NCBI GenBank assembly: GCA_002298785.1
Contig: DBMR01000011.1
Location: forward strand, 84,979 to 148,978
Length of the DNA stretch: 64,000 nt
Source: Verrucomicrobia subdivision 3 bacterium UBA693
GTDB taxonomy: Bacteria > Verrucomicrobiota > Verrucomicrobiia > Limisphaerales > UBA8199
Direction of reading: 5' to 3'
Shown here: positions 9,396 through 46,781 of the stretch, one piece after another
How the letters are laid out: each line of letters starts with the position of its first letter
Position numbering within the stretch: position 1 is the first letter of the stretch
Made by a program: the position numbers and the translations under genes
The notes under the pieces: generated by a model
What the model was told of the DNA's origin: nothing
Databases searched by the model: none
Seen by the model: only the letters and a program-made list of their open reading frames with translations

Positions 9396-9399
9396 TTTC

Positions 9400-25400: not shown

Positions 25401-25432
25401 GAATAGGCGACAAAATAATCATCACCTCCCCT

Positions 25433-25461
25433 GCCGTCATGTGGCATGAAGTGGCCACAAG
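25433..25461 (-). promoter_or_regulatory. Copy 1 of conserved 29-bp element (TGTGGC-N8-GCCACA core) with adjacent -35/-10-like hexamers
   Basis: The plus-strand sequence is GCCGTCATGTGGCATGAAGTGGCCACAAG. On the minus strand it is followed by ATGACG (25440-25435), a 17-nt spacer and TATTTT (25417-25412). It lies 40 nt upstream of the ATG at 25400. Confidence 0.6.
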
Positions 25462-25582
25462 CACGATTGATTACTATGGAAACTCACCGAAATTCGGGAT
25501 TGCATGACGCTCGACTCGCGATCGTCAATCCCGCTCCAAGCCTGTTTTTCTTTCGCCCCGTGCCCCGGCGGGCGCGCCCACG

Positions 25583-25611
25583 AAAAAGGGGTGTCCCCGA
25601 AGGGACACCCC
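25583..25611 (-). terminator. Rho-independent terminator of the PATR gene
   Basis: On the minus strand, GGGGTGTCCC-ttcg-GGGACACCCC (a 10-bp perfect stem) is followed by TTTTT. It begins about 33 nt after the stop at 25645. Confidence 0.75.
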
Positions 25612-25644
25612 TGAGTTTGTTAACCCGGTACTTAACCGAGCGGA

Positions 25645-28600
25645 TTACGGCACCCGCATCTTGTAGAAGCGGACCGGCTCCGCCGGATTGATGGGGATAG
25701 CGTTGGAGAACGCGCCGGCGGCGTCAAACACGCCGGTGCTGTTGGTGGTCCAGTTCGCTGCGGGGGCGGCGACGTTCACCGAGGTCAGCCAGGTGTAACC
25801 GGTTCCCGGAGCGCCACCGGTGCCGGTCATGATCAGGTTGCCGCCCACGATGTGCGGCGGACGGACTACCGGCGGCGGGAGCACGATACCCGACACGCGG
25901 ATGGTGCCGTCCACAGCCAGTTTGCTCAGGTCCCAAGTGTAACCCGACGGAAGGTTCGTTGTGGTGAAGGAACCGCTCTGGGTACCCCAATCAAACAGGT
26001 TGAACGTGTCGTTTACGGCCAGCGCGTTCGTCCCGACGAGCACCACGTTGAGCGTGCCGCCAAAGGCGATATTGCCGCCCACGACGACCAGGTCACTGGC
26101 CACCACGCCGCCATCCTTGGAGATTTCCATGGTGGTGGTGCCATTGAGGGTGAGGTTATTGCTGATCGACAGCGCACCGATGGAAGCGCCCGGAGCCAGC
26201 GTCGCGCCGGTAGCTACGGTCACCGAACCGCCGGCGATGACGCCGGAACCGCCCAGCGTGCCCGCGCTGACGAGCGTGGCGCCGGTGTAGGTGTTCGTCC
26301 CCATCAGGGCCAGCGTGCCGGTGCCGAGCTTGGTCAAACCGCCGCCCGCGCCGCCGTCCAACAGCGATTGGCCAATGGCGATGTGGTTCGTGCCCGTATC
26401 AATCGTTGCCCCGCGCGCCAGTACGAAGGCGGTGCCGAGGCCATTCATGAAGTCGGGGTTGGCGTTGGGACCGGCGCGCAACACGCCACCGTTGAAGTTA
26501 AACGTGCTGGAGCCGGGACCACCCGTGAAGCGGCGCGCCTGGAAGGTGCCGCCATCAAGGTTCACCACGCCATTCGCGGTTGCATTATTACCCATAGTGA
26601 CCGCGTCGCAACCAGTCACGATCGAACCGGTGCCACTCAGGTTGAGAGTGCCCTGGCCTTCTTCACCGACGCGGAACAGTTTGCCGGTGTTAAGATTGCC
26701 GTGGGTGATGGTACCGCCGGTGACGTTCAGGATGCCGGGACCGTCCGTGTAACGGCCAATCACGAACCAATGACCAGGAGCCACGATGGTGCCGGCACTC
26801 AGGTTCCACGTGCCCGCCCCGTGGAATCCAATCTGGAACTCATTGCCGTCGGGGTAGCGACCAATGGCGGAACCACCGGTCTGATTCATCGTGCCCGTGC
26901 TGCCGGCGCCCTTGCCAATGAAGAAGTTGTTGGCAGTCGCGGTGGCATTGTTCTGGAGGTTCATCGTGCCCTGGCCGGTACCCACGTCCGTAACGTTCAT
27001 ATCCCACAGCACCCAGAGGCTGCTGTTGTCTTTCACGGTGAGCGTGCCGGTGCCATCTTCGTTCCCCACGGACATCCACGCGTTAACCGTCAATGAGCTT
27101 GAGTCCGCGAGGGTCATGATGGCGTTCGCGCCGGTGTGCCATCCGAGGTGGATGCGCCAACCGGAATACATGGAGGAGTTGCCGTTCAACAGGATGGTCG
27201 AGGTCGAGCCACCGCTTTCCCCAAGGTTCATGTCCCCGTTGTTGGTGAAGCTGGAGGTGCCGTTCAACGCCAGCGTTTGCAGGGCGGAATTGCCCAGGAT
27301 ATTATTGGCATATCCCAGCGAAGCGCTGCCCGATCGCAGTACCGAGTTATAGAGCGTTGCCGTGGAAACATTGCCCACCGTGCCGTTGCCACGGCCGACC
27401 GCGAACCAGCTATCGATGTTCAAAACAGTATTGCTGAGGATCAAGGAGGCGCCGGCGTCCACCGTGCTGCCAACCCAGAATTCATTTTGGTTGTGGTTGG
27501 TCTGCCCCACACCGGTGCCGTCGAATACCACCGTGCCGGCCAGGATGTTGTAGCCAGGGAATCCACCACCCGAAAGCTCCTTAACGCCGGCCCCGAAGTG
27601 CGTCAGCTTGGCCGGACCCGATTTCACAAAGGAACTGCCGGTAGTGGCGGTCACCAAGCCACCGAGGCCCAGATCGCTCACCGTATTGATCGAGCAATTC
27701 GTATCCTGCACGGAGTAACCGCGGTTGACCGCGACCGCCGGGCCGCCGTAACTCAGGCTGCCGTTTGCCAGGACCAGGTTGGCTGGAGCCGAGGAAGCAC
27801 TGCCCAGGGCGCTCGCCGAACCGCCGTTCGCGAGATTGGTCACCACCACCGTGCCGCCCATAATCTTGGTCGGTCCGGTGTAATCGTTGACAGTATCCAG
27901 CGTGAGCGTGCCGGTGCCGTGCTTGGTGAGGCTGGCCGCGCCACTGATCTTGCCCGTGCCGCTGATGGTGTAATTAACCACGCTGTTGTTGACCGTGACC
28001 TTGGCGGGATTGACCGTGGTCCCGAGATTCACGCTCGTGGTGCCCAACGCCGCGTCATCAAACAACACCGCGTTGCCTTGAGCGAAGAAAGCCGGAAGCC
28101 CGGTGCTCAGTTCCACCCAGTTGGTGGTCAGACCGATATCCCAGGTTCCACCCGCCTGACCGTCCCAACGCGGTGCGGAAACCGCCGTGATCTTAAGGTC
28201 AATCGAGCCGGCAGGATTGGTGACAATCGTCGCCACCACCCCGCTCGGGATGGACGCGATCGTGAAGCTTCCCGAACCCGTCCGGCTTCCGTACTTGATC
28301 AGCGGGAATTCGCCCACTTGCGGCAGAGCGTCCGCGATATTAACCGCAATCGGACCGTTGACCGAGAGCGCGCCGGCCAGGTTGATCGGGGCGGCGGTGG
28401 GATTGCCATAGTTACCGAGGTCCAAATCCAAAGTGGCAGTGTCAAGGCTCAGGCTGGTCAAGCCCGCTTGAGCGTTGGCGGACAGAACTAAAAGGCCGAG
28501 GCTCGCGCCATTGGCCACGGTGTAAGCACTCGCACCGGCCACCGCGGTGGTCAGTTGGACTTTGCCAGCATTGACGACAGTGGCACCGGTGTAGGTGTTG

Positions 28601-30201
28601 GCCCCATTGAGGGACAACATTCCGTTGCCGTTCTTGATCAAACCGCCCGAGCTTACATTCGCCAGAACCGGGATGCCCAGAGTCGCCGGAGTCGAGGCTC
28701 CGCCGTTAATCAGCGTCACCGCCGGCGCAGCGCTGTATCCGTATCCGGAGCAGGTCACCAAGATGTTCGTCAGTTTGCCCGCGACCGGATCAATCTGCGC
28801 CAGAGCCGTGGCTCCGCCACCGGCACCGCTCGGGTCGATCTGCACAATCGGCGGGGCCATGTAACCCGCGCCGCCATCGCTGACGGGGATGCTCACCACG
28901 CCCTGGCCTGACGGGGCAATCAGAGCTTGCGAAATGGTCACGTCGTAACCCGCGGTGTCCAGGGTCAGGTTCCCAGCATAGATCACCGCTTCCGCCATGA
29001 CGCCGGGCAGGAACGACGGGTCGTTATTCTTCGCCTGCACCATGCCGCCGTTAAAGTTCAGATAAGCCGTGCCACTCCACTTATCAATCTTCGGAACCTT
29101 CAGGAGGCCGCCGTTGAGGTTGAGATAGGACGTGCCATTGGCCATCATCAGGGGCATCGCCGTCTCCAGCACGCCCGTTCCGGAAACGGTGACTTCGCCG
29201 CGACCATTTTCACCTACCATATAGCGGGTGCCGGTGCCGATGTGCTGGAAAAGACCGCCAGAAATCCAGGTAATGCCGAGACTGCCAGCATACCGAGCAG
29301 TGTCGCACCAGCCAGACTGGATGTTCGTGCCGCCGCTTTGATACAGCAGGCCCTTGCCATAGCGACCGACCTGGAAGTTGAACGGGCAGTTCAGCGTCCC
29401 AGCGGAAAGGCTGTAAAACCCAAACGCGTCCACGGAAGCCTGCGCATCGCCGCCGATGGTCCACTCGTTGGCATTGCCGCCGGTGCCGTTAATGGTCCCG
29501 CCCGTCTGCCACAGAGCGCCAATGGCGGTGTCATTCTTTCCCACGAAGAAGCGCGAGACGTTTAACGTCGCATTGTCTTTGATGTATCCGAAACCGCGGC
29601 CGCTGCCATAATCGCCAATGTTCCAATCCTGGGCCGCGAGCGTATAAACAGCATTGTCCTGCAGAGTCAACGAGCCGATGCCGCCGTTGCCGTTGCCAAT
29701 GCCATTCCAGCCGCCAGTGATATTGATCCTGGCGTTGTCTTTTACGAAAACCTGTCCAGTGCAGAAGGTGCCGTCGCCAACGATAAAACCGTCGCCAGTC
29801 TTGTTGATAATGCCATTGCCGGCAACGATGAGGGTCGAAAGTGGTGTGTTACCGCCATTGCCCGTGCGTCCGACCACCAGCCAATTATCCACCGGCAGAG
29901 TTCCACCGTTGGTGACGATGATGGTGCCAGCGACTCCGCTGTTACCGGCCCAGGCTTCGCTCACGTGGGGCACGGTGTTGGAAATGATGGCGGTGCCGCC
30001 ATTCCCAATATTGCCGATCGCCCAACCGCCGGTGTTATCCGGCAGGACGCCACCGGCCCAATTGGCGGGATCATTCCACCAACCAGTACCAGTGTTGCTC
30101 CAGTCGACAGCGCGCGCACCGGGCGCCATTGCCACACAAGCGCACGCCACGGCGGTCAACGCCAGCGGCTTGTTGAATCTTGTTTGTTTCGATTTTTTCA
30201 T
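25645..30201 (-). CDS. Giant autotransporter-associated beta-strand repeat (PATR) surface protein with FYR-type tail
   Basis: 1518 aa, signal peptide MKKSKQTRFNKPLALTAVACACVAMAPGARA. PATR units recur (GNGMLSLNGANTYTGATVVNAGKVQL, GTGTLTLDTVNDYTGPTKIMGGTVVV, GTGTLALMGTNTYTGATLVSAGTLGGSG). The tail is GGNLIMTGTGGAPGTGYTWLTSV...PVRFYKMRVP. Confidence 0.85.
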   Translation of the reverse strand: MKKSKQTRFNKPLALTAVACACVAMAPGARAVDWSNTGTGWWNDPANWAGGVLPDNTGGWAIGNIGNGGTAIISNTVPHVSEAWAGNSGVAGTIIVTNGGTLPVDNWLVVGRTGNGGNTPLSTLIVAGNGIINKTGDGFIVGDGTFCTGQVFVKDNARINITGGWNGIGNGNGGIGSLTLQDNAVYTLAAQDWNIGDYGSGRGFGYIKDNATLNVSRFFVGKNDTAIGALWQTGGTINGTGGNANEWTIGGDAQASVDAFGFYSLSAGTLNCPFNFQVGRYGKGLLYQSGGTNIQSGWCDTARYAGSLGITWISGGLFQHIGTGTRYMVGENGRGEVTVSGTGVLETAMPLMMANGTSYLNLNGGLLKVPKIDKWSGTAYLNFNGGMVQAKNNDPSFLPGVMAEAVIYAGNLTLDTAGYDVTISQALIAPSGQGVVSIPVSDGGAGYMAPPIVQIDPSGAGGGATALAQIDPVAGKLTNILVTCSGYGYSAAPAVTLINGGASTPATLGIPVLANVSSGGLIKNGNGMLSLNGANTYTGATVVNAGKVQLTTAVAGASAYTVANGASLGLLVLSANAQAGLTSLSLDTATLDLDLGNYGNPTAAPINLAGALSVNGPIAVNIADALPQVGEFPLIKYGSRTGSGSFTIASIPSGVVATIVTNPAGSIDLKITAVSAPRWDGQAGGTWDIGLTTNWVELSTGLPAFFAQGNAVLFDDAALGTTSVNLGTTVNPAKVTVNNSVVNYTISGTGKISGAASLTKHGTGTLTLDTVNDYTGPTKIMGGTVVVTNLANGGSASALGSASSAPANLVLANGSLSYGGPAVAVNRGYSVQDTNCSINTVSDLGLGGLVTATTGSSFVKSGPAKLTHFGAGVKELSGGGFPGYNILAGTVVFDGTGVGQTNHNQNEFWVGSTVDAGASLILSNTVLNIDSWFAVGRGNGTVGNVSTATLYNSVLRSGSASLGYANNILGNSALQTLALNGTSSFTNNGDMNLGESGGSTSTILLNGNSSMYSGWRIHLGWHTGANAIMTLADSSSLTVNAWMSVGNEDGTGTLTVKDNSSLWVLWDMNVTDVGTGQGTMNLQNNATATANNFFIGKGAGSTGTMNQTGGSAIGRYPDGNEFQIGFHGAGTWNLSAGTIVAPGHWFVIGRYTDGPGILNVTGGTITHGNLNTGKLFRVGEEGQGTLNLSGTGSIVTGCDAVTMGNNATANGVVNLDGGTFQARRFTGGPGSSTFNFNGGVLRAGPNANPDFMNGLGTAFVLARGATIDTGTNHIAIGQSLLDGGAGGGLTKLGTGTLALMGTNTYTGATLVSAGTLGGSGVIAGGSVTVATGATLAPGASIGALSISNNLTLNGTTTMEISKDGGVVASDLVVVGGNIAFGGTLNVVLVGTNALAVNDTFNLFDWGTQSGSFTTTNLPSGYTWDLSKLAVDGTIRVSGIVLPPPVVRPPHIVGGNLIMTGTGGAPGTGYTWLTSVNVAAPAANWTTNSTGVFDAAGAFSNAIPINPAEPVRFYKMRVP

Positions 30202-30345
30202 GGGGATTTGGATGATTACTTACGCGTCCGTGTCTGCCACTTCACTGAAGAGGAGTGAAACAAATCGTCACCGTCCGGAACGAGCCCAGGAAACGACTTG
30301 GTTTAGACCACAGGAACATGGCTCAAGTATAAGAAGGGCCAAAGG

Positions 30346-30374
30346 GCTGTCATGTGGCATAAAGTGGCCACACG
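30346..30374 (-). promoter_or_regulatory. Copy 2 of conserved 29-bp element with adjacent -35/-10-like hexamers
   Basis: The plus-strand sequence is GCTGTCATGTGGCATAAAGTGGCCACACG. On the minus strand it is followed by ATGACA (30353-30348), a 16-nt spacer and TATACT (30331-30326). The core starts 152 nt upstream of the PATR ATG at 30201. Confidence 0.6.
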
Positions 30375-30511
30375 CAAATTGTCAACCTAATTATGTGATT
30401 ACATTTTCCCGGAGCTGCGACCAGCCCACCCGCCCGCAAGCAACCGGGCATAATTGTCGCAACTAACTCCTATCAAAAACTTTACAGAAGCAACCGCATT
30501 CAACTACTATC

Positions 30512-31582
30512 TCACCTCGCCGGGGATGGGGGTGAGGTTGCTGGTTCCTCCACCAGGTGGCTTAAAGGTATGGGTAACCCAAAGTTGGGCGTCCCGTCCG
30601 CATTCCACGTAAACCTTTGCACCCGGGTCGTCCTCCCACGGTAAGCATATTCGGAACTGGTCTTGGCGTGATACACGATCCAGTCCGAGCCATCCCCGGC
30701 GCGGAAGAAGCCATTATGCCCAGGGCCGAACACCCCGTTAGCGTCGTTGCGCTCAAAAACCGGGGCCGGATGCTGGTGCCAGGATTTCGGATCGAGGACG
30801 TCCGCAGTGTCCTCAGCGATGAGCATGCCGAGTTTGTAATCCGGTTTGCCGGTGTCGCAGGCGGAGTAAACCAGGAACAGCCGCCCGTTTCGTTGCAAGA
30901 CCACCGGCCCCTCCCGGACCTCGGCACAACCAAAACCCGAGGCTGGCAACACCACGCCGTTCCCGCTCAGGGTCCAGGGATTCGCCAATCGCGCGATGGT
31001 CAGCACATGCCCCGGACGGGCTGCCCACAGGAAATACCACGATCCATCCGGCTTGGAGAACACCGAACCGTCGATGGCATAAGCGTCGTTGGTGGGGTTC
31101 ACCAGTCGTGCTTTGTAGGCATACGGTCCGAGCGGGTCGCGACCGGCGCTTTCCAGCACGTGCATGCGATGTCGGTCGTCGTTATTGTCGCTCGAGGTGG
31201 CGGTGTAATACAGGTACCAGCGATTGCTGAAGTAATGAAATTCCGGCGCCCACATGCCGCGCGACCGGCTCGGATCGAAGTCCTGCCAGACCGTTACTGG
31301 TGAGACCGCTTTCAAACCGCCGATCGTCGGCGCTTTCCACATGCGAATGGCATCGCCCTGGGTAGTGGTGAGGTAGTAATTCCCGTCAAAATATTCCAGC
31401 CACGGATCGGGGCCGGGGTTGATCGGATTCTGGAATTTGCCCGAGTTGACTTGAGCCATAGCCATGCCCAGGGTCAGGCTCACCCACATCAACACCAGGC
31501 TCACCCAACAAAAAAAATGTTCAGCCACCACCAGGCTCCCTGCGAGGCCCCCGGTGCGTTTAAGAAAATCACGTCGTTTCAT
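30512..31582 (-). CDS. GH43-family glycoside hydrolase (arabinofuranosidase/arabinanase/xylosidase type)
   Basis: 356 aa with a Tat-like start MKRRDFLKRTGG. GH43 five-bladed-propeller strings are NPGPDPWLEYFDGNYYLTTT, MWAPEFHYFSNRWYLYYTA, AIDGSVF and EGPVVLQRNGRLFLVYSA. Confidence 0.85.
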   Translation of the reverse strand: MKRRDFLKRTGGLAGSLVVAEHFFCWVSLVLMWVSLTLGMAMAQVNSGKFQNPINPGPDPWLEYFDGNYYLTTTQGDAIRMWKAPTIGGLKAVSPVTVWQDFDPSRSRGMWAPEFHYFSNRWYLYYTATSSDNNDDRHRMHVLESAGRDPLGPYAYKARLVNPTNDAYAIDGSVFSKPDGSWYFLWAARPGHVLTIARLANPWTLSGNGVVLPASGFGCAEVREGPVVLQRNGRLFLVYSACDTGKPDYKLGMLIAEDTADVLDPKSWHQHPAPVFERNDANGVFGPGHNGFFRAGDGSDWIVYHAKTSSEYAYRGRTTRVQRFTWNADGTPNFGLPIPLSHLVEEPATSPPSPAR

Positions 31583-31723
31583 GGAGGGATGCTGTCGGAT
31601 TGGCCTTTCCAGTCACTGCGAACCGTAACCGCGCCCAGGCAATCGCCGACGCGATACGTGCAATTCGTCGATGCTCGGCGAGTGGAAACATGTTGCTGCA
31701 CGAGTCTAAAATAGCGCCGCCTC

Positions 31724-31752
31724 AGCGTCCTGTGGCATGAAATGGCCACACA
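31724..31752 (-). promoter_or_regulatory. Copy 3 of conserved 29-bp element, in the divergent region between the GH43 and GH127-like genes
   Basis: The plus-strand sequence is AGCGTCCTGTGGCATGAAATGGCCACACA. On the minus strand it is followed by AGGACG (31731-31726), a 17-nt spacer and TAGACT (31708-31703). The core starts 149 nt upstream of the GH43 ATG at 31582 and ends 56 nt upstream of the plus-strand ATG at 31806. Confidence 0.6.
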
Positions 31753-31805
31753 CAAAAGACCTGCCTGCCAGGACCCGAGGCTGCTATGCTCCAGGCAGCT
31801 TGTCT

Positions 31806-33857: not shown

Positions 33858-33892
33858 GGGCGAGACTAAATCCACCTTCAGAACTGACTGTT

Positions 33893-37639: not shown

Positions 37640-37666
37640 AGCGCTCGCGGTCGCTTCACTCGTAAC

Positions 37667-39739
37667 TCACCGATAAAAGCGGGTGGCCGCATCGGCCGGT
37701 CCCGAGTCTATCCAGAAGAATGGCATTGCCGGCGCGTTGGTGCGCAACAACGTCACCCACGCGCCGATACGGCCCAGGTTGGTGGAAACCTGGATGACAT
37801 AGTCCGGCCCGTAATCTCCATCGATCCGCAGTCCGATCCCGGCATCGGAAATCACGGGCGTATTGAGTTGGGGTTGCGACAGGTTGGTGACGGTAACGAC
37901 GAACCGTTGCGTGGCACTTAAGCTGGGCGACCCGCTGTCTGCCACCACCACGGCCACGGCATTGACGGTGTTCGCCTGAACCACCGCCGGCCGCCACTTG
38001 AACACACCATTCGTGCCATCCAGAAAGGCTCCGGTTGGCGCAGTCAAAAGCGAAAAAGTCAGAGTTTGTCCAGCGTCAGGATCGGAGGCGGTATTCGTAA
38101 CCGCCAGGGACTGACCGGCGCCAATCGAGAAATCCGGCACTGGCGCTAATGTGGGCGGACGGTTCGCCAGGGCGGCGACTTCCACGCTGGTGAGCGCGCG
38201 TCCATACACGCGCGCATCCCGAATAGTGCCCTTAAAATATTCGTCGCCACCCGGAAAATCCGCACCGAGATAAAGCGGTTCGTTGACGACACCAAAGCGC
38301 AGCGTGACGAACGGCTGGTTGGCATCCAACTGGCCATTGAGATAGAAGCGTAACCGGATACCGTCATAGGTCACAGCCGCGTGGCACCATTGCCCGACGC
38401 TCAGTTTCCCCGAGGAATTCCAGGAACCACCGCCAACGCTCCCGGCGGGATTGCCCCAGTTCGCGGTGAAACGCAACGCCCCATCGCTCCAGGTTTCCAG
38501 GGCGAAGGCCGTGCTGTTGCTGCCTTTGGTGATCAGGCCGGCCCAATCCGTGAAAACGTCCGCCCGGACCCAGGCCGCCAGGGTTACCGCGTGTTGCACC
38601 TCGTTGCCCAGCCCTGGACCAGCGTCGACATAGGCGTTGGTGCCGTTGAATCTCAACCCGGGATTCGCCCAAACGGCCCCCCCGTTCAAGGTGGCGAGCC
38701 GACCACACATGATGCTCGCGGTGGTGGTGCCGGTCGTTTGCTCCAGCGAAAATCGCGCGACGAGGAAGTCAGCGTCGTCGGTCGCCGCAGAACCGATGGG
38801 CACCGGCGTGCCGAAATCCGGAAGGTTGGCCACGGTCCACGCGACGCGTTGCGCCCGAATGCGCCGCAGCCCGCCGCAGCCTTCTCCCGAGTTGTTGTTG
38901 GCATGGTAGATATTCCACCACTGTCCGGCGACGTCTTGCAGCACACAATGGTGTCCGGGGCCGTAAGCACCGGGTTGCTTGGTGAACACCGGGCCCGATT
39001 TGGTCCACGAAGCGCGATCCAAAAGATTCGCCCCGGTCAACGTGAGCAACCCCAAGGTGTAATCGTCCGTCCAGCAACCGCTGGCCGAATACGCGATGAA
39101 CAGTTGGCCGTTGCGCTGGAACGCCCAGGGACCTTCGTTGACCTTGGGGTCGCCGATCCGCTCCCAGGGTTGAGTGGGTTCAGAAAGCAGCACCAGTGGC
39201 CCAGCCAAGGTATAGGGATTGCTCATGGGCGCAATGTACAGGTTCTGCGTCGAGCCCTCGTTCCCCGAGCAGATAAAATAAAGTTTGCCGTCGCCGGCGG
39301 TGAACACGCTCCCGTCAATATTCCAAAACGTGTTAAACAAAATGCCGCGATCGGTATAGGGCCCGAGGGCACTGGTGCCCTGGCTTTCAGCAACAAACAC
39401 CCGATGCCCAGCACCCGGATTGCGGCTGTAATAGAGATACCAGCGGTTGTTGAGCCAATGCAATTCCGGGGCCCAGACGTCCGAGTAACCGGGCGCGTAA
39501 ATCGAGTAATCCGAAGCCGTCACCAACCCGCCAATCGAGGCAGATCGGCGCAGATGAATCACGCAGCCATCGCTCTGGACGAGGTTGAATAGACCGTCTT
39601 TCAGAGTCACCGCGGGATCTTGCCCCTGCATGAGGGAGTTCGTGAAACAAGCCCCCCACAGGTTGGCCCCAGCGCCACACACGCACGCGAGCACTGCTAC
39701 CGCTCCCAGGGAGCGCCATGGCCGGGTGAAGGGTCTCAT
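37667..39739 (-). CDS. GH43-family hydrolase fused to LamG-like and cadherin/Ig-like domains with FYR-type tail
   Basis: I prefer the start at MRPFTRPWRSLGAVAVLACVCGAGA (ATG 39739), which overlaps the upstream stop as ATGA. GH43 strings are GQDPAVTLKDGLFNLV, VWAPELHWLNNRWYLYYS, NIDGSVF and NEGPWAFQRNGQLFIAYSA. The LamG segment is LRFNGTNAYVDAG...GTIRDARVYGRAL. The cadherin-like segment is SDPDAGQTLTFSLLTAPTGAFLDGTNGVFKW. The tail is ...YVIQVSTNLGRIGAWVTL...ATRFYR. Confidence 0.85.
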   Translation of the reverse strand: MRPFTRPWRSLGAVAVLACVCGAGANLWGACFTNSLMQGQDPAVTLKDGLFNLVQSDGCVIHLRRSASIGGLVTASDYSIYAPGYSDVWAPELHWLNNRWYLYYSRNPGAGHRVFVAESQGTSALGPYTDRGILFNTFWNIDGSVFTAGDGKLYFICSGNEGSTQNLYIAPMSNPYTLAGPLVLLSEPTQPWERIGDPKVNEGPWAFQRNGQLFIAYSASGCWTDDYTLGLLTLTGANLLDRASWTKSGPVFTKQPGAYGPGHHCVLQDVAGQWWNIYHANNNSGEGCGGLRRIRAQRVAWTVANLPDFGTPVPIGSAATDDADFLVARFSLEQTTGTTTASIMCGRLATLNGGAVWANPGLRFNGTNAYVDAGPGLGNEVQHAVTLAAWVRADVFTDWAGLITKGSNSTAFALETWSDGALRFTANWGNPAGSVGGGSWNSSGKLSVGQWCHAAVTYDGIRLRFYLNGQLDANQPFVTLRFGVVNEPLYLGADFPGGDEYFKGTIRDARVYGRALTSVEVAALANRPPTLAPVPDFSIGAGQSLAVTNTASDPDAGQTLTFSLLTAPTGAFLDGTNGVFKWRPAVVQANTVNAVAVVVADSGSPSLSATQRFVVTVTNLSQPQLNTPVISDAGIGLRIDGDYGPDYVIQVSTNLGRIGAWVTLLRTNAPAMPFFWIDSGPADAATRFYR

Positions 39740-42105
39740 CGCGAAGGAGCGCTCGCCTGCTTTAACAGGCAAACACCAAACACACCGCCCGCCGTGTTGC
39801 CAGGTCGAGGCTGAAACCGGAGAGTGACCTTCGCTTTGCCCCGCGTGAGTTCCGCCGGGATCGGATAGAGCTTTTCAAAAAGTTCATTCGGTCGCGAGGC
39901 CGTCAACTTCTCCGTCGCGAACCGTTGCCCCTCGACGAGCAGGTCAAACTCGCGATTTCCAGCGTCGCTTCCCCAATAGGTTAGTTGCAGTTCCATCGGC
40001 TTGTCCGGGCTCACTTGGACCGTGTACTCGAACCAGCCACCGTCACGGGCGTCGCGCCATTTGGGCGAACCGCCGCCACTGAAGGTACGCTCCCCCTTGA
40101 AAGCATGGTCGACCTCGGATTGCTGTTCGCCCGGTTTGACATCGTCCACGATGCGCGCCTGAAACGCTTTTCGAGCGGCAGCCGCAGCCGCCAACTCGGC
40201 TGTCTTACGCTTCCAATCTGCAGGGGTAAAGGTCTCGAAATACACCGCGTAACGCTGATGATGCGCGCGCCAGAACGGAATGAGAGTCACCTCATGTGGC
40301 TGCACCATCCGGGTAGTCCGAAACGTCAGGGGCTGACCGGATACCGGCTGAAGATGATCGAGCCACCGCCCGTTCTCCGCCACAAAATAGGGAATCACCG
40401 GGGCCGGGATGTTACGCAAAACGTTTTCGTTTTGATCCGTTTGGCAGAGATCAAGCCCCGTTAGTCCTTCCGTGCCCAGTTCGGCAGCCAACACAATGGG
40501 GCCATAGGCCAACGCCAGAATGTTCGTCGCGTGCGGCAGCGGCGCCGTTCGCAACGCCATCGGCAGGCGCACCTCCACGTGGTCCCCATCGCGCCACTCG
40601 CGGGTCAACGCGGCGTAGCCGGCTTCCACCGCGGGTCGGGCAGACTGGCCATTTACCCGGATCACCATCGAACCGGCCAGCCAGGACGGCTGCCGAATCT
40701 TGAGCGCAAACTTTGTCGGGGCCTGGGCGGAGACAGTGAATCTGGTTTGGTCGGTTTCCGGGAATTTGGTCTCCTGACGCAGCGTGACACCCCTGTCAGA
40801 CCAGGTCATTTCTGAAGGGATGAAGAGGTTCACCCAAAGCGTATTGGAAGACTGCGCATAAATGGTGCGCCCGTATTTGCTGTGGTTTTCGATTCCAGTT
40901 CCCAGGCAACACCAAAACGCATTGGTCGGGTTTGAATAGATCTTGAAACCACCCGGTTTCAACGCCTGGAAATAAGTGAACATACCGGTGCGCGGATCCT
41001 GTGAACCGAGGATCTGGTTGTAGAGCGCCTGCTCGTAATAATCCATCCAGCGCGCCGCCGGAGCCCAAGCGAACAGATGCTCGGTGAGCTTGAGCATGTT
41101 ATATGTGTTGCAGGTCTCGCAGGTGGCGGAGCTGAGATGCGCGCGAGTCTGTTCCGGCGGGAAGAAGTGCTCGCTATCGCTGTTGCCTCCGATCGCGTAA
41201 GTCCGGTTCGTCACCACGAACCACCAGAAATTCTCCGCTACGCGCTGAAAATAAGCATCGCCCGAGGCTTCATAGAGGCGGGCCGCCCCCGTCATCTTGG
41301 GAATCTGGGTATTGGCGTGAAGCCCATTCAGGCGATCTTCGCCGCGCGCCAGAGGGTCCATCACCAGGTGGTGGCAGAAGCGTTTGGCCAATTCGAGATG
41401 CTGCGGGTCCCCGGTCAGCAAGTAGATATCGGCGAGCACCTCCGCCATGCCGCCGTGCTCGTTCCCCAGCATCGTTTCCATTTCCTGGGGACTCAAATCG
41501 TGCGTAACGGCTTCAGCCCAACCGGCCAATCGGATCATCACCGCCTTCGCTTGTTCGTTCCCGCACAACACATAGGCATCCCGCAGACCGGCGAAGAGCT
41601 TGTGCATGGTGTACCACGGTGCCCACCCCTCGAGGCGGCCATCGCGCTGCTTCAGCCCATGGAACAGGGCGCGTCCGTTCGGGATGGCCGCCACGAAGCC
41701 GTTCGGATCACGCGCCTGGCAGCGGCTGAGTTCACCCACGATATAGTTCACCCGCTCCAGGAAACGCTGATCGCCCGTGGCGCGATATTGCTGCGCCAAA
41801 GCCGTCAGGTAATGCCCGAGCGATTGCCCGGCCACACCTTGCGATTCCCAGCCGCCATACCGCGGAGCTTTGGGGGGCAGGCCCGCGTTCTGGAGCATTC
41901 CCGAAAGCAGACGGTCCGGATCCAGGGACAGGAGATATTTCGCATTCAACTCCATGGCGACCTTGAAGGGACCATCGAGGAGTCGAACATCGCGCAGATC
42001 GGGAGCCGAAGCCGTGAGGGGGACGGCCAGTTCGACCGCTGAAGCCAGGGCCACCAGGCAGATCAAAGCGGCCCCCATCGCGAACGGATACAGTAATCTC
42101 TTCAC
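39736..42105 (-). CDS. GH127 beta-L-arabinofuranosidase (DUF1680 family)
   Basis: 789 aa, signal peptide MKRLLYPFAMGAALICLVALASA. The N-terminal string is VRLLDGPFKVAMELNAKYLLSLDPDRLLSGMLQNAGL. The zinc/nucleophile motifs are SATCETCNTYNMLKL (E-x-C) and FWCCLGTGIENHSKYG (CC). Confidence 0.88.
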   Translation of the reverse strand: MKRLLYPFAMGAALICLVALASAVELAVPLTASAPDLRDVRLLDGPFKVAMELNAKYLLSLDPDRLLSGMLQNAGLPPKAPRYGGWESQGVAGQSLGHYLTALAQQYRATGDQRFLERVNYIVGELSRCQARDPNGFVAAIPNGRALFHGLKQRDGRLEGWAPWYTMHKLFAGLRDAYVLCGNEQAKAVMIRLAGWAEAVTHDLSPQEMETMLGNEHGGMAEVLADIYLLTGDPQHLELAKRFCHHLVMDPLARGEDRLNGLHANTQIPKMTGAARLYEASGDAYFQRVAENFWWFVVTNRTYAIGGNSDSEHFFPPEQTRAHLSSATCETCNTYNMLKLTEHLFAWAPAARWMDYYEQALYNQILGSQDPRTGMFTYFQALKPGGFKIYSNPTNAFWCCLGTGIENHSKYGRTIYAQSSNTLWVNLFIPSEMTWSDRGVTLRQETKFPETDQTRFTVSAQAPTKFALKIRQPSWLAGSMVIRVNGQSARPAVEAGYAALTREWRDGDHVEVRLPMALRTAPLPHATNILALAYGPIVLAAELGTEGLTGLDLCQTDQNENVLRNIPAPVIPYFVAENGRWLDHLQPVSGQPLTFRTTRMVQPHEVTLIPFWRAHHQRYAVYFETFTPADWKRKTAELAAAAAARKAFQARIVDDVKPGEQQSEVDHAFKGERTFSGGGSPKWRDARDGGWFEYTVQVSPDKPMELQLTYWGSDAGNREFDLLVEGQRFATEKLTASRPNELFEKLYPIPAELTRGKAKVTLRFQPRPGNTAGGVFGVCLLKQASAPSR

Positions 42106-42119
42106 GGAATTGCCCGTAA

Positions 42120-44387
42120 TTAAGGCTGCACCAATATCGCCAGGTCGATCAGTTGACCACCGGCGGTTTGGTGAGTGTGAATGGCGAGCGTGTTGCGGCC
42201 TTTCTTGAGCGCCTGCCGGAGCGTCGTGGTCACCTCGAAGGCCTCATAAGCGTTGTTGAACCCTCCCCGGCTCCAAATCTTCTTCCCATTCACATACACC
42301 TCGGTGTCCTCGTCATGAAAGATTACCAGGGCAGCGGCGCTCAGCTCGGTGGTGGCAGATTCGAACCTGCCGCGCAGCCAGATGTCACTGGTCTTCCAGG
42401 ACGTCCGGGCGTTGGGGAAATTTCCAAAGGGCGCCAATCCTTCCGACCAGGCGCCGTCGTTGAATCCTTCCGTATTCCAATCCACCGCCGGGGTCTCGAG
42501 GGTAAAGCGATACGGCTTGTTCAGGTTGCCGTCCGGCGCCGCTCCCACCAGCACGCTCCAGTCCCGGGGCGCTTTATCGGCCGGTTTCGGGCTGATCGGG
42601 CCGGTGATTTCATACGCCGCCCGCCGGGAAGTGGCCGCATGCAGCCGTTGGGTGTCGAACTTGGGGCGGCGGTCATAATAATACAAGCCATTGTGCTCCT
42701 GCTCCACATCCGTGAGTTGCGTGTAACAAAAGCCGAACATGTCGGGATTATCGAGCAACGCGCTCACCAGTCCTTCATAGCGGGTGTAAAACTCCTCGAT
42801 CGATTTCGGACCGGCGCCATAACCCCAGCCGCCTTCAGTCGCCCAGCCGATGCCCCCAAATTCACTCACCATGAAAGGCACACCCACGTCCCGGCCGGAC
42901 GCACCCACACCATATCGTGACGGTATCGGAACCGAAGTATTACCGGCAAAGAAGTCCAGCCACCGCTTTTTGAAGCTGGCGGGGTCCTGATTATAGTCGT
43001 GATCATCCCGCACTTCGGGGGCCTTGATGGTGTGGGCCCAGCCGCTGGTTTCCAGCACGGGCCGCGTGGGGTCGATGGCCCTGGTTTCGTGCAGGATCAG
43101 GTTCTGAATTTCACCGGCCACGGCTGGCGTTTCGTTGAACGGACACCACCCGACGATGGCGGGGTGATTGCGGTCACGCTGCAGAATCTCCGTCCATTCA
43201 TTGATTACGTTCGCATAATTCGCCGGTTCATAATTGAAACCCCAGTTGGGGAATTCGCCCCACACCAGGTAGCCCAACTTGTCCGCCCAATAGAGGAAAC
43301 GCGGTTCGAAAACCTTTTGGTGCAATCGGGCGCCGTTGTAGCCGGCCGCCATGCTCAATTCGATGTCGTGCTTGAGGGCCTCATCCGAAGGCGCGGTCCA
43401 GATGCCATCCGGATAAAATCCCTGGTCGAGGATCAACCGTTGGAAGACTGGCTTATCGTTAATCAGGATCGCGCGGCCGCGGATGGAAACCTTGCGCAGC
43501 CCGAAGTAGCTCGCCACCTGGTCCACCACTTTCCCGCCGCGCGTGAGCGTGAACTTGAGGTCGTAAAGAAACGGCGATCCAATTTCCCACAGGTGCTTCT
43601 GCTTGAGATCAAGCACCAGCCGATTCTCACGCCAGGAAGCCGGGCGGGATTCTTTGCCGACCGACTTGCCGTTGGCGAACGCTTCCACCGCAAGGACCAG
43701 ATTGGTGTCACCGTCATTAATGGCGGCGTCGATCAGCACCCGCGAGCGATCGGGATCAGGCACGATGGAAAACCCTTCCACGAAAGAGTCACCCACGGCC
43801 TCTAGCCAAACCGGCTGCCAGATGCCGGTGGTGCGAGTATAAACGCAGCCTTCGCTGACGCTGTGCGTCTGTTTACCGGTCGGTTGCCGCCCGCTCGCGG
43901 TATCGTCGAAAGCGCGCAGGACCACCTCGTTGCTTCCGACCCGTAGCCAGCGGGTGATGTCGAACGCAAACGCGACATTGCCACCCACATGCGTGCCCGC
44001 CAACTGGCCGTTCACCCACACCCACGCCTGATAGTCCACGCCCCCAAAATGCAGCCGAATCCGCTTACCCTGCATCTTCGCCGGAACTTCGAACGTCCGC
44101 CGATACCAAACATTCTTCATCATGTCATAATGGCCGATCCCGCTTAGCTTGCTTTCCGGACAGAAGGGCACCGTGATCTTCGATCCCAGCGGCTTTCCGG
44201 AAATTAGTCCGCGCTGGCTGCCGTCACCCTGGGCATCGATCTCAAATTCCCACTCCCCATTCAGCGTCACCCAGTTCTCGCGGAACGCGTCCGGACGCGG
44301 ATGCTCCGGGCGCGGCACCGCCACGGCCGTAAAGGCTGCCAGGACCACCAGGCTGGACCAACCGGCGATTGCGTTCTTAATTCTCAT
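42120..44387 (-). CDS. GH2 glycosidase with C-terminal ~135-aa beta-sandwich module
   Basis: I prefer the start at MRIKNAIAGWSSLVVLAAFTAVAVP (ATG 44387). GH2 strings are HPRPDAFRENWVTLNGEWEF, VWYRRTFEVP, LHFGGVDYQAWVWVNGQLAG, NHPAIVGWCPFNE and MVSEFGG. The module is at nt 42123-42518. Confidence 0.85.
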   Translation of the reverse strand: MRIKNAIAGWSSLVVLAAFTAVAVPRPEHPRPDAFRENWVTLNGEWEFEIDAQGDGSQRGLISGKPLGSKITVPFCPESKLSGIGHYDMMKNVWYRRTFEVPAKMQGKRIRLHFGGVDYQAWVWVNGQLAGTHVGGNVAFAFDITRWLRVGSNEVVLRAFDDTASGRQPTGKQTHSVSEGCVYTRTTGIWQPVWLEAVGDSFVEGFSIVPDPDRSRVLIDAAINDGDTNLVLAVEAFANGKSVGKESRPASWRENRLVLDLKQKHLWEIGSPFLYDLKFTLTRGGKVVDQVASYFGLRKVSIRGRAILINDKPVFQRLILDQGFYPDGIWTAPSDEALKHDIELSMAAGYNGARLHQKVFEPRFLYWADKLGYLVWGEFPNWGFNYEPANYANVINEWTEILQRDRNHPAIVGWCPFNETPAVAGEIQNLILHETRAIDPTRPVLETSGWAHTIKAPEVRDDHDYNQDPASFKKRWLDFFAGNTSVPIPSRYGVGASGRDVGVPFMVSEFGGIGWATEGGWGYGAGPKSIEEFYTRYEGLVSALLDNPDMFGFCYTQLTDVEQEHNGLYYYDRRPKFDTQRLHAATSRRAAYEITGPISPKPADKAPRDWSVLVGAAPDGNLNKPYRFTLETPAVDWNTEGFNDGAWSEGLAPFGNFPNARTSWKTSDIWLRGRFESATTELSAAALVIFHDEDTEVYVNGKKIWSRGGFNNAYEAFEVTTTLRQALKKGRNTLAIHTHQTAGGQLIDLAILVQP

Positions 44388-44454
44388 ATTCTCAGTTATA
44401 GTGTTCGATTTCAGTAAAGTGTTCGGGCCGGCGATGCGCCGCGGGAGCGTTCGG

Positions 44455-46734
44455 TCATTTGCCCTCATGGGCGCTGGTGGGCGTTTTCGGCTTCATAATC
44501 AACAACCCCACATCGATCCCCTGCCCACCGCTGGTTTGATGACAGTGCACGGCCAGGGTATTGGTGCCGGTATGAAGCGCGGCCAGGGCTTCAGCGGAGA
44601 GCACTGCATCCACGTAATCCCCATAAAAACCGGCAAGCTTCGCCGCCAGCACCCCGTTCACGTAAATTTCCGCATCCTCATCATGGTAAACCCGCAGCTT
44701 CATAACGCCCTGCGGGAGTGCATCCAGGGAAAATTCGCGCCGCAACCAAATGTCAGCGGTATCCCAAACAGTGTTGACGCGCGCGCCCGGCGTGCCCGGC
44801 GAACCGAATCCACCCGGTCCTTCCTTCCAGCCGGAAGCTTTGAAGTCTGCTTTTGGCCAATCGTCGGGGGGGGGGTGGGTTGTGTATTTCCAAATGGTGC
44901 GACCAAACACCGCATCCGGCAGCACGATCTTCATGGGCCGACCTCCCCACTCGCCGTGGTTCGCCGCCAGCATGATCGCCGGATCGATCTTGGCCACCGC
45001 ACGGTCATAAGTAAGCAAACCGTTGCACTCCGTCTCAACGTCAGTGGTCTGCGTGTAAATAGCCGCGCTCAAGCCCCGCAAGTCGTGGAGCGCCCAAACC
45101 TGGTCCAGCAACGAAGCATACCGCACCTCGAGTTCCTTGCGACTGTCCAACATCAGGTAACCCCAACAGCGCGAAGACCAGGAATGGCCGTCGATCGGCA
45201 GTCCCAAACCACCGAACTCACCCAGGACCGCCGCCCGCCTCGCCTCCGGTTCGGGCGAATCCGGTCCGGGATAACTGTGCGCATCGATGAAATCGCCGAC
45301 ATGCATGTCGGTCCAACCGCTGGCATTATTCACCAGGCGTGAGGGATCGAGCGTCTTCAGCCATTGCGTCAGGCGTTCGGTGTCATATTGACCCCAACCT
45401 TCATTGAACAGCACCCAGGCAATAATCGACGGATGGTTTTCCAGATCCCCGACCATTTGCAGCAATTCAGTTTCAAATTCCTTCCGGCCCTCCGGCCGGG
45501 CATTGTTGCCGCTGGGCATGTCCTGCCAAACCAGCAAACCCATTTTGTCACACCAGTAATACCAGCGATCCGGCTCGACCTTGACGTGCTTGCGCGTCAG
45601 GTTAAACCCGGATTTCTTCAGGAATTCGATATCCGATCGCAACGCTTCGTCCGTCGGCGCCGTACAAATTCCATCCGGCCAATACCCCTGGTCGAGGGTC
45701 CCAACCTGAAAAACGAATTCGTCGTTTAAAGCGATGCGTGTAATTCCCAGCGCGTCTTTGCGCAGCGCCACTTTCCTCAGACCGAAGTAGCTGGAGACTG
45801 AATCGACGGGATGCCCGTTCTCCCGAACCGTTACTTTCAAATCGTAAAGAAAAGGGTTGTCCGGAGTCCACAAACGCACTTCTGCGAGAGGCAAAACCAG
45901 GTCTTCATTCGCCGAACCCACGATCCGGCCGGCCTCTTTGCCTTCGGCCAGCGCGACGGCTTCGACCCGGAGGCTTTCGGAAAGGTTGCCCACCGCCACC
46001 CGCAGCCGCAACGATTTCGCATCCACGTCCGGCGTGAGTTTGAGGCGATCCACGCCTCCGGTCGGCACCGGTTCGAGCCACGCGGTTTGCCAGATGCCCG
46101 AGTGGGGCATGTAGAAAATCCCCTCCGGTTTGCGTGATTGTTTGCCGCGCGGCTGATCACCCTCGGTCGGATCGGACACCGCCACCACCAATTCCTCGTC
46201 CCCGTTCCAGCGCAATTGATCGGTAATGTCGAAACCAAATCGATCATAACCGCCGCGATGCTGGCCGACCTCATGGCCATTGACCAGCACGCGCGTATGC
46301 CAATCCACGGCGCCGAAATGCAGTCGCACCCGTTGTCCGCGCCATGGGGCAGGAATCGCCAGGCGGCGCTGGTACCACAACGCGCTGTTTTCATCCAACC
46401 GGCTCATCACTCCAGACAAAGCGGATTCCACGGGAAACGGCACCAGGATCCGTCCGGTGTACGTGATCGGCACGCTGGAAGTCAGGGGGACGATCGCATA
46501 GTTCCACAGGCCGTTGAGATTCACCCATTCTTTCCGAGCCAACTGGGGCCGCGGGTATTCCGGCAGCACGTTGGTGGGATTGACCTGAGCAGCCCATCGG
46601 GTCAGCAACGGACCCCGCGCCACCTGCCAGGAGGCGGCCTCGCCCCAACTCGCGCTCAGGCTGCCGAGCAGGACAAATGCCGCCACGGCATAACGCGCCG
46701 CCCAATGAATGGAGCACAAGGTCACAGTGGGCAT
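44455..46734 (-). CDS. GH2 glycosidase with C-terminal ~135-aa beta-sandwich module
   Basis: I prefer the start at MPTVTLCSIHWAARYAVAAFVLLGSLSASWG (ATG 46734), because the longer track ORF reads through the regulatory element. GH2 strings are YPRPQLARKEWVNLNGLWNY, LWYQRRLAIP, LHFGAVDWHTRVLVNGHEVGQHRGGYD, NHPSIIAWVLFNEGWG and VLGEFGG. The module is at nt 44458-44898. Confidence 0.85.
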   Translation of the reverse strand: MPTVTLCSIHWAARYAVAAFVLLGSLSASWGEAASWQVARGPLLTRWAAQVNPTNVLPEYPRPQLARKEWVNLNGLWNYAIVPLTSSVPITYTGRILVPFPVESALSGVMSRLDENSALWYQRRLAIPAPWRGQRVRLHFGAVDWHTRVLVNGHEVGQHRGGYDRFGFDITDQLRWNGDEELVVAVSDPTEGDQPRGKQSRKPEGIFYMPHSGIWQTAWLEPVPTGGVDRLKLTPDVDAKSLRLRVAVGNLSESLRVEAVALAEGKEAGRIVGSANEDLVLPLAEVRLWTPDNPFLYDLKVTVRENGHPVDSVSSYFGLRKVALRKDALGITRIALNDEFVFQVGTLDQGYWPDGICTAPTDEALRSDIEFLKKSGFNLTRKHVKVEPDRWYYWCDKMGLLVWQDMPSGNNARPEGRKEFETELLQMVGDLENHPSIIAWVLFNEGWGQYDTERLTQWLKTLDPSRLVNNASGWTDMHVGDFIDAHSYPGPDSPEPEARRAAVLGEFGGLGLPIDGHSWSSRCWGYLMLDSRKELEVRYASLLDQVWALHDLRGLSAAIYTQTTDVETECNGLLTYDRAVAKIDPAIMLAANHGEWGGRPMKIVLPDAVFGRTIWKYTTHPPPDDWPKADFKASGWKEGPGGFGSPGTPGARVNTVWDTADIWLRREFSLDALPQGVMKLRVYHDEDAEIYVNGVLAAKLAGFYGDYVDAVLSAEALAALHTGTNTLAVHCHQTSGGQGIDVGLLIMKPKTPTSAHEGK

Positions 46735-46752
46735 CGTGTCAGAATGTCCCGG

Positions 46753-46781
46753 GCTGTCATGTGGCATGAAATGGCCACAAG
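46753..46781 (-). promoter_or_regulatory. Copy 4 of conserved 29-bp element, between the response-regulator stop and the GH2 operon start
   Basis: The plus-strand sequence is GCTGTCATGTGGCATGAAATGGCCACAAG. It ends 43 nt downstream of the regulator stop (46824), and its core starts 26 nt upstream of the ATG at 46734. ATGACA follows on the minus strand, but no convincing -10 hexamer sits at 16-18 nt. Confidence 0.6.

Follow-up and report, generated by a model that had tools for sequence, protein, structure and literature searches.

A 20-bp palindromic box fused to the −35 element of glycan-island promoters in subdivision-3 Verrucomicrobiota, a probable operator of a NarL-type response regulator

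The 64-kb window analysed here, a stretch of contig DBMR01000011.1 from Verrucomicrobia subdivision 3 bacterium UBA693, carries a glycan island in which four minus-strand transcription units are each headed by the same short palindrome, TGTGGC-N8-GCCACA, referred to below as the box. A first-pass annotation of this DNA had noted four copies, all intergenic and in a single orientation, and had counted 21 invariant positions in a 29-bp element around them. Direct reading gave the same count, and an exact search returned four matches, at 25440, 30353, 31731 and 46760 on one strand, against none in 100 dinucleotide-preserving shuffles of the window. The gene calls of that annotation (pseudopilin-like, PATR, GH43, GH2-GH2-GH127-GH43 and two REC+GerE regulators) were confirmed by Pfam. 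The comparisons described below suggest that the box is probably the operator half of an operator-promoter module, bound by a dimer of the regulator encoded at 46824-47456, which would activate the four units. The boxes, their proposed target genes and the proposed regulatory pair are:

25440..25459, minus strand: box copy 1 (TGTGGCCACTTCATGCCACA), by exact search, upstream of the pseudopilin-like gene
30353..30372, minus strand: box copy 2 (TGTGGCCACTTTATGCCACA), by exact search, upstream of the PATR gene
31731..31750, minus strand: box copy 3 (TGTGGCCATTTCATGCCACA), by exact search, upstream of the GH43 gene in a divergent intergenic region
46760..46779, minus strand: box copy 4 (TGTGGCCATTTCATGCCACA), by exact search, heading the GH2-GH2-GH127-GH43 operon
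24525..25400, minus strand: target gene 1, pseudopilin-like (N_methyl and DUF1559), by Pfam
25645..30201, minus strand: target gene 2, PATR-repeat protein of 1518 aa, by Pfam
30512..31582, minus strand: target gene 3, GH43, by Pfam
37667..46734, minus strand: target operon 4, GH2 (44455-46734), GH2, GH127 and GH43+LamG, by Pfam
46824..47456, minus strand: response regulator, REC and GerE/LuxR-type helix-turn-helix (HTH), recognition helix HTVRNYIRRIY, the proposed box binder
47453..50524, minus strand: putative cognate histidine kinase with Reg_prop beta-propeller and Y_Y_Y sensor, HisKA_3 and HATPase_c, the proposed glycan sensor

Read on the minus strand, every copy is TGTGGCCAYTTYATGCCACA, a 6-8-6 palindrome whose two halves were always found together, and runs directly into ATGACR (AGGACG in copy 3). 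A search with the 29-mer at up to 3 mismatches recovered 3 of the 4 copies, and relaxed searches of the whole 64 kb yielded no further credible one; window matches with 8-9 mismatches numbered 47 versus about 29 in mononucleotide shuffles, which is not clearly above, and none was box-like. The whole window gave no match in a gathering-threshold scan against Rfam. Copy 4 begins 45 nt past the stop codon of the regulator gene. The core-to-ATG distances first reported, 152 nt at copy 2 and 149 nt at copy 3, proved right by direct reading. A plus-strand open reading frame (ORF) at 31737-33857, encoding a GH127-like protein, overlaps copy 3 if its mechanical start at 31737 is taken. The signal peptide (MNRQNRNLSSLHQAVTLCLLLLLP...) begins at ATG 31806, which is more plausibly the start of this gene and would place copy 3 in a divergent intergenic region; the GH127-like gene, which starts at 31806 and is transcribed away from copy 3, lacks a box.

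The regulator 46824-47456 (210 aa) matches Response_reg (E 5.6e-26) and GerE (E 5.6e-18) in Pfam and gives full-length alignments with VraR, DevR and NarL; the VraR alignment (E 2e-27) covers REC, linker and GerE, with the DVILMD motif aligned. Adjoining it is the HisKA_3-type kinase 47453-50524, in which Reg_prop (E 8.6e-61) and Y_Y_Y (E 1.6e-10) were identified and which is without a REC or AraC domain. Same-strand genes continue after the pseudopilin-like gene 24525-25400 as far as 13367. The PATR gene is ended by a strong intrinsic terminator at 25587-25612 (11-bp stem with 8 G-C pairs, T-tract), which stands between this gene and the copy 1 promoter.

Putative promoter elements lie directly beside all four boxes:

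25412..25440, minus strand: copy 1 promoter, −35 ATGACG (25440-25435), 17-nt spacer, −10 TATTTT (25417-25412), by reading
30326..30353, minus strand: copy 2 promoter, −35 ATGACA (30353-30348), 16-nt spacer, −10 TATACT (30331-30326)
31703..31731, minus strand: copy 3 promoter, −35 AGGACG (31731-31726), 17-nt spacer, −10 TAGACT (31708-31703), by reading
46733..46760, minus strand: copy 4 promoter, −35 ATGACA (46760-46755), 16-nt spacer, −10 CACGAT (46738-46733), by footprint

Both the −35-like hexamers previously reported directly after the box in all four copies and the −10-like hexamers (TATTTT, TATACT, TAGACT) at 16-17 nt in copies 1-3 were recovered by direct reading, and box and −35 share one base in the window copies. 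A strict consensus promoter scan was passed by copy 2 only (10/12 to consensus), copies 1, 3 and 4 being weaker. The copy 4 promoter was assigned from a phylogenetic footprint, in which spacers between the regulator stop codon and the next gene were aligned from 11 lineages: invariance is limited to the box, TGA, and an A and a T located 20 and 24 nt on, the C of TGAC coming close to it, and this A and T are the A(−11) and T(−7) of CACGAT. ATG 25400 lies only 11 nt past the copy 1 −10, and its mRNA would therefore be near-leaderless. ATG 46734, given for the copy 4 operon in the first-pass annotation, is doubtful as a start codon since the copy 4 −10 (46738-46733) overlaps it; the in-frame GTG 46725 recurs in the closest Limisphaerales orthologs, and a start there would give a leaderless-like mRNA from this promoter. 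In many box promoters the start codon of the main gene is located within a few nt of the predicted transcription start, and 'accATGa' is found 10-12 nt past the −10 in many loci, which implies that many box promoters may produce leaderless or near-leaderless mRNAs.

A scan of one genome per species with the 20-mer yielded at least 118 motif loci (cited by L number); instance counts here cover the matches listed. Nearly all listed loci, more than 100 of them, are Verrucomicrobiota of Limisphaerales/Pedosphaerales (subdivision 3) type. Six deviating matches among those listed, four in Acidobacteriota and one each in Pseudoruegeria and Acidimicrobiaceae, are all without flanking TGAC, and all four acidobacterial matches are inside long ORFs; the six look like chance or coding matches. 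Metagenome-assembled genomes (MAGs) labelled Bifidobacteriaceae, Pseudomonadales, Sulfotelmatobacter, Dongiaceae and Baltobacteraceae carry typically verrucomicrobial loci with regulators 70-82% identical (among them L008, L012, L020, L033, L036, L039, L055, L065 and L066), and the taxonomic labels of these records look unreliable.

Across 131 listed instances the bases that follow the 20-mer, which were outside the query, are T in 87%, G in 85%, A in 82%, C in 82% and A/G in 83%, and a −10-like signal is found downstream of TGAC(A/G). In the same instances the 40 nt preceding the box are devoid of informative positions. TAnnnT starts 17-19 nt after TGAC, leaving a spacer of 16-18 nt, in 110 of 149 listed distinct TGAC-flanked instances; within the −10 only T−12, A−11 and T−7 are conserved, and most promoters have 3-4 of 6 matches. 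The conserved TGACR and TAnnnT place the predicted box centre at −43.5 to −45.5. A same-strand ORF starts within 400 nt downstream in 126 of 132 listed instances, typically at 25-260 nt (median 108 nt), and very few of the 132 are inside long ORFs. Divergent gene pairs have two opposed boxes and not one shared box (10 nt apart in L047; also L024, L179 and L184). The fixed orientation, the fused −35 and −10 elements and the opposed boxes at divergent pairs together argue for a directional operator-promoter module and not for a repeat of the repetitive extragenic palindromic (REP) type. The proposal of a dyad operator abutting the −35 of the minus-strand units is thus supported by about 150 listed instances with TGAC(A/G) and TAnnnT and by the consistent orientation, and judging from this arrangement the box abutting the −35 of a sigma-70-type promoter is probably an operator. 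In the literature library that was searched, no paper contains the box sequence or an account of its regulon.

The 126 listed proteins encoded downstream of the box are mainly of two kinds, large secreted proteins (59) and pseudopilin-like ones about 300 aa long (25). Among 41 sampled, the families were PATR (13), Laminin_G_3 (12), GH2 (5), Ig-like domains, GtaA-like hydrolases, sulfatases, GH78 and GH106 rhamnosidases and aldose epimerase. A subgroup of promoters (L001, L012, L020, L027, L042, L056, L068, L094 and L107) has an extra T between box and −35, giving CCACA-TTGACA; most of these have an extended −10, TG(C/A)GAnnCT, and the genes behind them encode related large secreted proteins.

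The first-pass annotation had named both regulators of the island as possible binders. By tblastn with the window regulators, relatives of 46824-47456 were found in many motif loci, about a dozen of them approximately 70-82% identical; these relatives mostly sit with a Reg_prop kinase, and other loci have more distant ones. The reverse search retrieved 80 ortholog loci with regulators 70-90% identical to 46824-47456, in 78 of which the kinase gene precedes the regulator, the regulator being too near the locus start in the other two. A box was present within 10 kb at up to 3 mismatches in about 55 of the 80, nearly always in the orientation of the regulator gene, and three layouts recur: the box may come just past the regulator stop codon (the arrangement in the window), it may follow a GH2 gene that is co-transcribed, or it may precede the kinase gene or be divergent from it. 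The order box, kinase, regulator in Akkermansiaceae-labelled MAGs looks like autoregulation. Of the at least 118 listed motif loci, 23 share a contig with one of the 80 orthologs, and most such contigs are 10-100 kb long and come from genomes of several Mb. On CAVWKA010000006.1 (367 kb) all three exact boxes are no more than about 10 kb away from the regulator gene, and on CAWJTA010000002.1 (3.3 Mb) three listed matches are within 88 kb of one another. Co-localisation, together with the co-variation described below, supports 46824-47456 as the binder. The other regulator, 9400-10125, is not supported: its helix is DTVCSHLKHVF, it is about 41-45% identical to the box-linked family and no box is nearby, so that it presumably has an operator of its own. 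It forms a second kinase/regulator pair (7890-10125) of a HisKA_3 kinase without the Reg_prop sensor and a REC+GerE regulator, adjoining a GH78 rhamnosidase gene.

The recognition helix HTVRNYIRRIY is common to all 93 recovered family members. It is kept even in members that are only 51-56% identical (in MAGs labelled Lentisphaeraceae, Chthoniobacterales and Akkermansiaceae), and each of these has an exact box within 2-3 kb in a different gene context. Among 80 NarL-type loci from a search seeded with a distant member, exact boxes were found only beside HTVRNYIRR (L199, L200, L203, L204 and L206), and 71 loci (about 750 kb) with NarL-type regulators having other helices contained no box at up to 3 mismatches. 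A paralog in L205 has the helix HTVRCYIRR, and 24 nt past its stop codon lies TGCCGC-CACTTCAT-GCGGCA-TGACAG (box at L205 6633-6652), in which the half-sites are altered symmetrically relative to the canonical box and the spacer and −35 are unaltered. A collection-wide scan with this variant box gave 19 matches, of which 17 are in scattered unrelated phyla without a TGAC flank and both verrucomicrobial ones (L205 and L297, the latter being CAIKHZ010000245.1) are beside a Cys-helix paralog. One MAG has the canonical regulator and canonical boxes in addition to the variant regulator/box pair. The variable Asn/Cys residue aligns with Thr in VraR and with what we take to be the base-contacting Val189 of NarL. 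Such co-variation would be the pattern expected of a cognate regulator-operator pair diverging after duplication.

The mechanism that we propose would begin with the periplasmic Reg_prop/Y_Y_Y sensor of kinase 47453-50524, a type with which Bacteroides hybrid two-component systems bind oligosaccharides; it would sense a glycan fragment, whereupon the kinase would phosphorylate the regulator 46824-47456. A dimer of the regulator would then bind the 20-bp dyad TGTGGC-CAYTTYAT-GCCACA, centred at about −44, and, in the manner of class-II activators such as LuxR and TraR, recruit or stabilise RNA polymerase at the adjoining −35 (A/T)TGACR, with the weak −10 TAnnnT beyond. The units switched on in this way would be the pseudopilin-like operon, the genes for the PATR protein and GH43, and the GH2-GH2-GH127-GH43 operon. 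The comparisons establish the architecture of the module, its conservation, its orientation to genes and its co-occurrence and co-variation with the regulator family, whereas binding, transcription starts, activation over repression and the identity of the signal are inferred. Activation is favoured by the weakness of the −10, by the location of the site upstream and by the layouts that suggest autoregulation.

Several observations weigh against this proposal. Strongly activator-dependent class-II promoters do not typically have a −35 as well conserved as TGACA is here; the regulator could instead repress by occlusion, or TGAC could belong to the site of the protein. The conserved spacer CAYTTYAT is asymmetric, a feature not accounted for by a simple symmetric dimer, and the half-site centres are 14 bp apart, wider than in the 7-2-7 sites of NarL. 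About 25 of the 80 ortholog loci, that of cultured Limisphaera included, have no box within 10 kb at up to 3 mismatches. The cultured Limisphaera sp. VF-2 has an exact box (L100) and a regulator that is 70% identical (L193). The co-localisation is partly conserved synteny, so that the ortholog loci are not fully independent, and since L205 and L297 are orthologous the co-variation of helix and box is a single evolutionary event. At least one MAG has two regulators with the same helix (L153 and L157), which leaves the basis of signal specificity unexplained.

The main rival keeps the same protein and the same site and differs in the sign of regulation, in that the bound regulator would block access of sigma region 4 or the C-terminal domain of the alpha subunit (alpha-CTD) to the −35 until the signal relieves it. 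It is kept open by the well-conserved −35, in which TGACA provides 5 of 6 consensus bases and exceeds the −10 in conservation, and by the base that box and −35 share. We nevertheless regard repression as unlikely, since repressor sites usually span −35 to +1 and do not end at the edge of the −35, and a −10 as weak as that of most box promoters is what activator-dependent promoters have. The box-kinase-regulator layouts resemble positive autoregulation, and glycan-sensing two-component systems of Bacteroides with this type of sensor (Reg_prop/Y_Y_Y) act as activators. Alternatively, the box could be bound by an unlinked factor, for example a global carbon regulator of the order, and the association with the regulator would then merely stem from shared glycan islands. 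The synteny of kinase, regulator, GH2 and box, the invariance of the box over many different target genes and the boxes without a nearby regulator on the contig (e.g. L066 and L082 on a 423-kb contig) would be consistent with such a factor. Against it, the box recurs by same-helix regulators in differing neighbourhoods (L074/L203, L093, L023/L199, L204 and L206) and is missing from the 71 control loci at up to 3 mismatches. A mere bystander would not lead one to expect an altered base-contacting residue paired with a symmetrically altered box, and we consider an unlinked factor very unlikely.

That the palindrome acts as a nucleic-acid hairpin, be it a signal in RNA processing, stability or attenuation or a cruciform, and not as a protein operator, is highly improbable. 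All four copies have the 6-bp stem in their minimum-free-energy folds, pairing is retained in the variants TGTGAC..GTCACA (L036) and C16 to T (G-U), two pairs are changed compensatorily in TGCCGC..GCGGCA, and copy 4 is within a possible kinase-regulator read-through transcript. The gain in stability is small, however (z −1.1 to −2.7), the 8-nt loop is conserved as well as the stem, and the outermost pair varies without compensation. The element is upstream of a conserved −35/−10 and would accordingly be outside the mRNA of its gene, and a role in RNA would not explain why it is so strictly fused to the −35. There is also no U-tract, no terminator call centred on a box and no Rfam match, and the intrinsic terminator or known structured RNA was rejected on these grounds and on the weak z-scores of the fold. 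The first-pass annotation had itself raised a REP-like or miniature mobile repeat scattered randomly between genes, and a short GC-rich palindrome with several copies per genome would fit that description. This explanation is hardly credible given that 126 of 132 listed instances have a fixed orientation to a same-strand ORF within 400 nt downstream, that the spacing to −35 and −10 is constant, and that flanks are neither repeated nor conserved. The copies are also identical across the entire order and kept at orthologous positions across genera, whereas the surrounding spacer diverges.

Two further readings of the sequence were rejected. One takes TGGCC..TGCC as a sigma-54 promoter, in which GG and GC are separated by exactly 10 bases (TGGCAC-N5-TTGC); on direct reading TGGCCAYTTYATGC gives GG-N9-GC, one base short, and a −35/−10 pair is conserved downstream. 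A direct repeat of OmpR/PhoB type (TGGCCAC/TGCCAC about 11 bp apart) needs a 1-nt indel, and TGCCGC..GCGGCA fits the inverted repeat better.

Downstream of the −10, a motif NTG-TYC(C)A was observed 6-8 nt on, at the predicted transcription start, in 38 of 149 listed promoters versus a background of about 0.4 per offset. It is seen in the window at 30313-30319 (ATGTTCC) and 31684-31691 (ATGTTTCC) and elsewhere in loci such as L035, L112, L004 and L117. Its first base varies in the order A>G>T>C, as that of a start codon would, which suggests that the motif may be a leaderless short upstream ORF; the encoded peptides have no conservation past Met-Phe or Met-Ser. For many of the 5′ untranslated regions (UTRs) of 84-120 nt behind these promoters, folding gives a long hairpin that the extreme 5′ end closes, in which GTTCC pairs with GGAAC 60-75 nt on and the stem has a conserved inner base GTCRAA...TTTGAC (window 30202-30319 and 31583-31691; L007, L035, L097, L123, L126, L128, L132 and L153). 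This 5′-terminal hairpin is found in about a quarter of the promoters. Single-sequence folds of the 5′ UTRs are weak (mean z −0.9), and RNAalifold predicted no pairs on a MAFFT alignment of the conserved 5′ UTRs, in which no Rfam match was found either. The hairpin may serve as a stem that stabilises the 5′ end, or it may be a cis-regulatory RNA of a kind not yet described. One may speculate that several paralogous glycan-sensing kinase/regulator pairs per genome, all of which keep an identical recognition helix across an order-level clade, share one box, and that substrate-specific control is given by a gate at the RNA level formed by NTG-TYC and the 5′ hairpin. We judge this two-tier design quite unlikely, and we know of no description of many sensors, one operator and an RNA gate in polysaccharide utilisation.

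The operator-promoter module that we propose resembles several known systems. The annotation had compared the box with a lux-box-type site bound by a LuxR/NarL-type HTH dimer, and both the geometry and the NarL-type family fit this description. As in the class-II promoters of LuxR and TraR, a dyad of about 20 bp would be used directionally by a dimer with a LuxR-type (GerE) HTH; it borders the −35 on the upstream side or overlaps it, with a centre at about −42.5 for LuxR and at a predicted −43.5 to −45.5 here. Membership of the autoinducer-type LuxR group does not hold, and a quorum-sensing lux box proper was rejected, since a phospho-accepting REC domain with a partner kinase takes the place of the acyl-homoserine-lactone-binding domain; moreover, the box has an unrelated sequence, and the promoters described here have a well-conserved −35 and a transcription start that is predicted. 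The DosR/DevR box of Mycobacterium is likewise a 20-bp palindrome upstream of many regulon promoters, its own operon included, and is recognised by a NarL-family REC+GerE regulator, DevR (3c3w) being among the best structural matches; half-site sequence, spacing, signal (redox/gas versus a presumed glycan) and phylum all differ. NarL and NarP belong to the same regulator family and have inverted half-sites read by helix residues at the positions that vary here, but their 7-2-7 sites are 16 bp long with half-site centres about 9 bp apart, as opposed to 6-8-6 and 14 bp, and the sites of NarL vary in position and form arrays.

Hybrid two-component systems in the polysaccharide utilisation loci of Bacteroides share the periplasmic Reg_prop and Y_Y_Y sensor, and their genes are embedded in, and presumably control, a glycoside hydrolase cluster. 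Kinase, receiver and AraC-type HTH are fused in those systems, whereas a HisKA_3 kinase and a separate NarL-type regulator are found here. The closest solved full-length structures are VraR and LiaR, with REC, linker and GerE aligned, which form phosphorylation-driven dimers on palindromic sites upstream of the −35; they differ in serving cell-envelope stress in Firmicutes, in being about 30% identical and in their helix, TVKTHVSNI versus TVRNYIRRI. The system thus represents regulation of NarL/VraR type in an understudied phylum, which is solid and useful for regulon prediction and mechanistically unsurprising.

Subdivision-3 Verrucomicrobiota (Limisphaerales/Pedosphaerales) are abundant glycan degraders of soils, peat and lakes with few cultured members, and to our knowledge the regulation of their glycan genes is unstudied. 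The proposed module would provide a testable regulatory code made up of a single 20-bp box, a single regulator family whose base-contacting residue can be identified and a Bacteroides-like sensor kinase, and with the box regulons may be predicted straight from MAGs. The Asn/Cys helix and its TG/CC half-sites would represent a natural pair for specificity divergence. Furthermore, the giant PATR-repeat proteins and the DUF1559 pseudopilin-like proteins would be placed under the same glycan-responsive control as the glycoside hydrolases, and this shared control may be a functional lead for both of these enigmatic and hugely expanded families.

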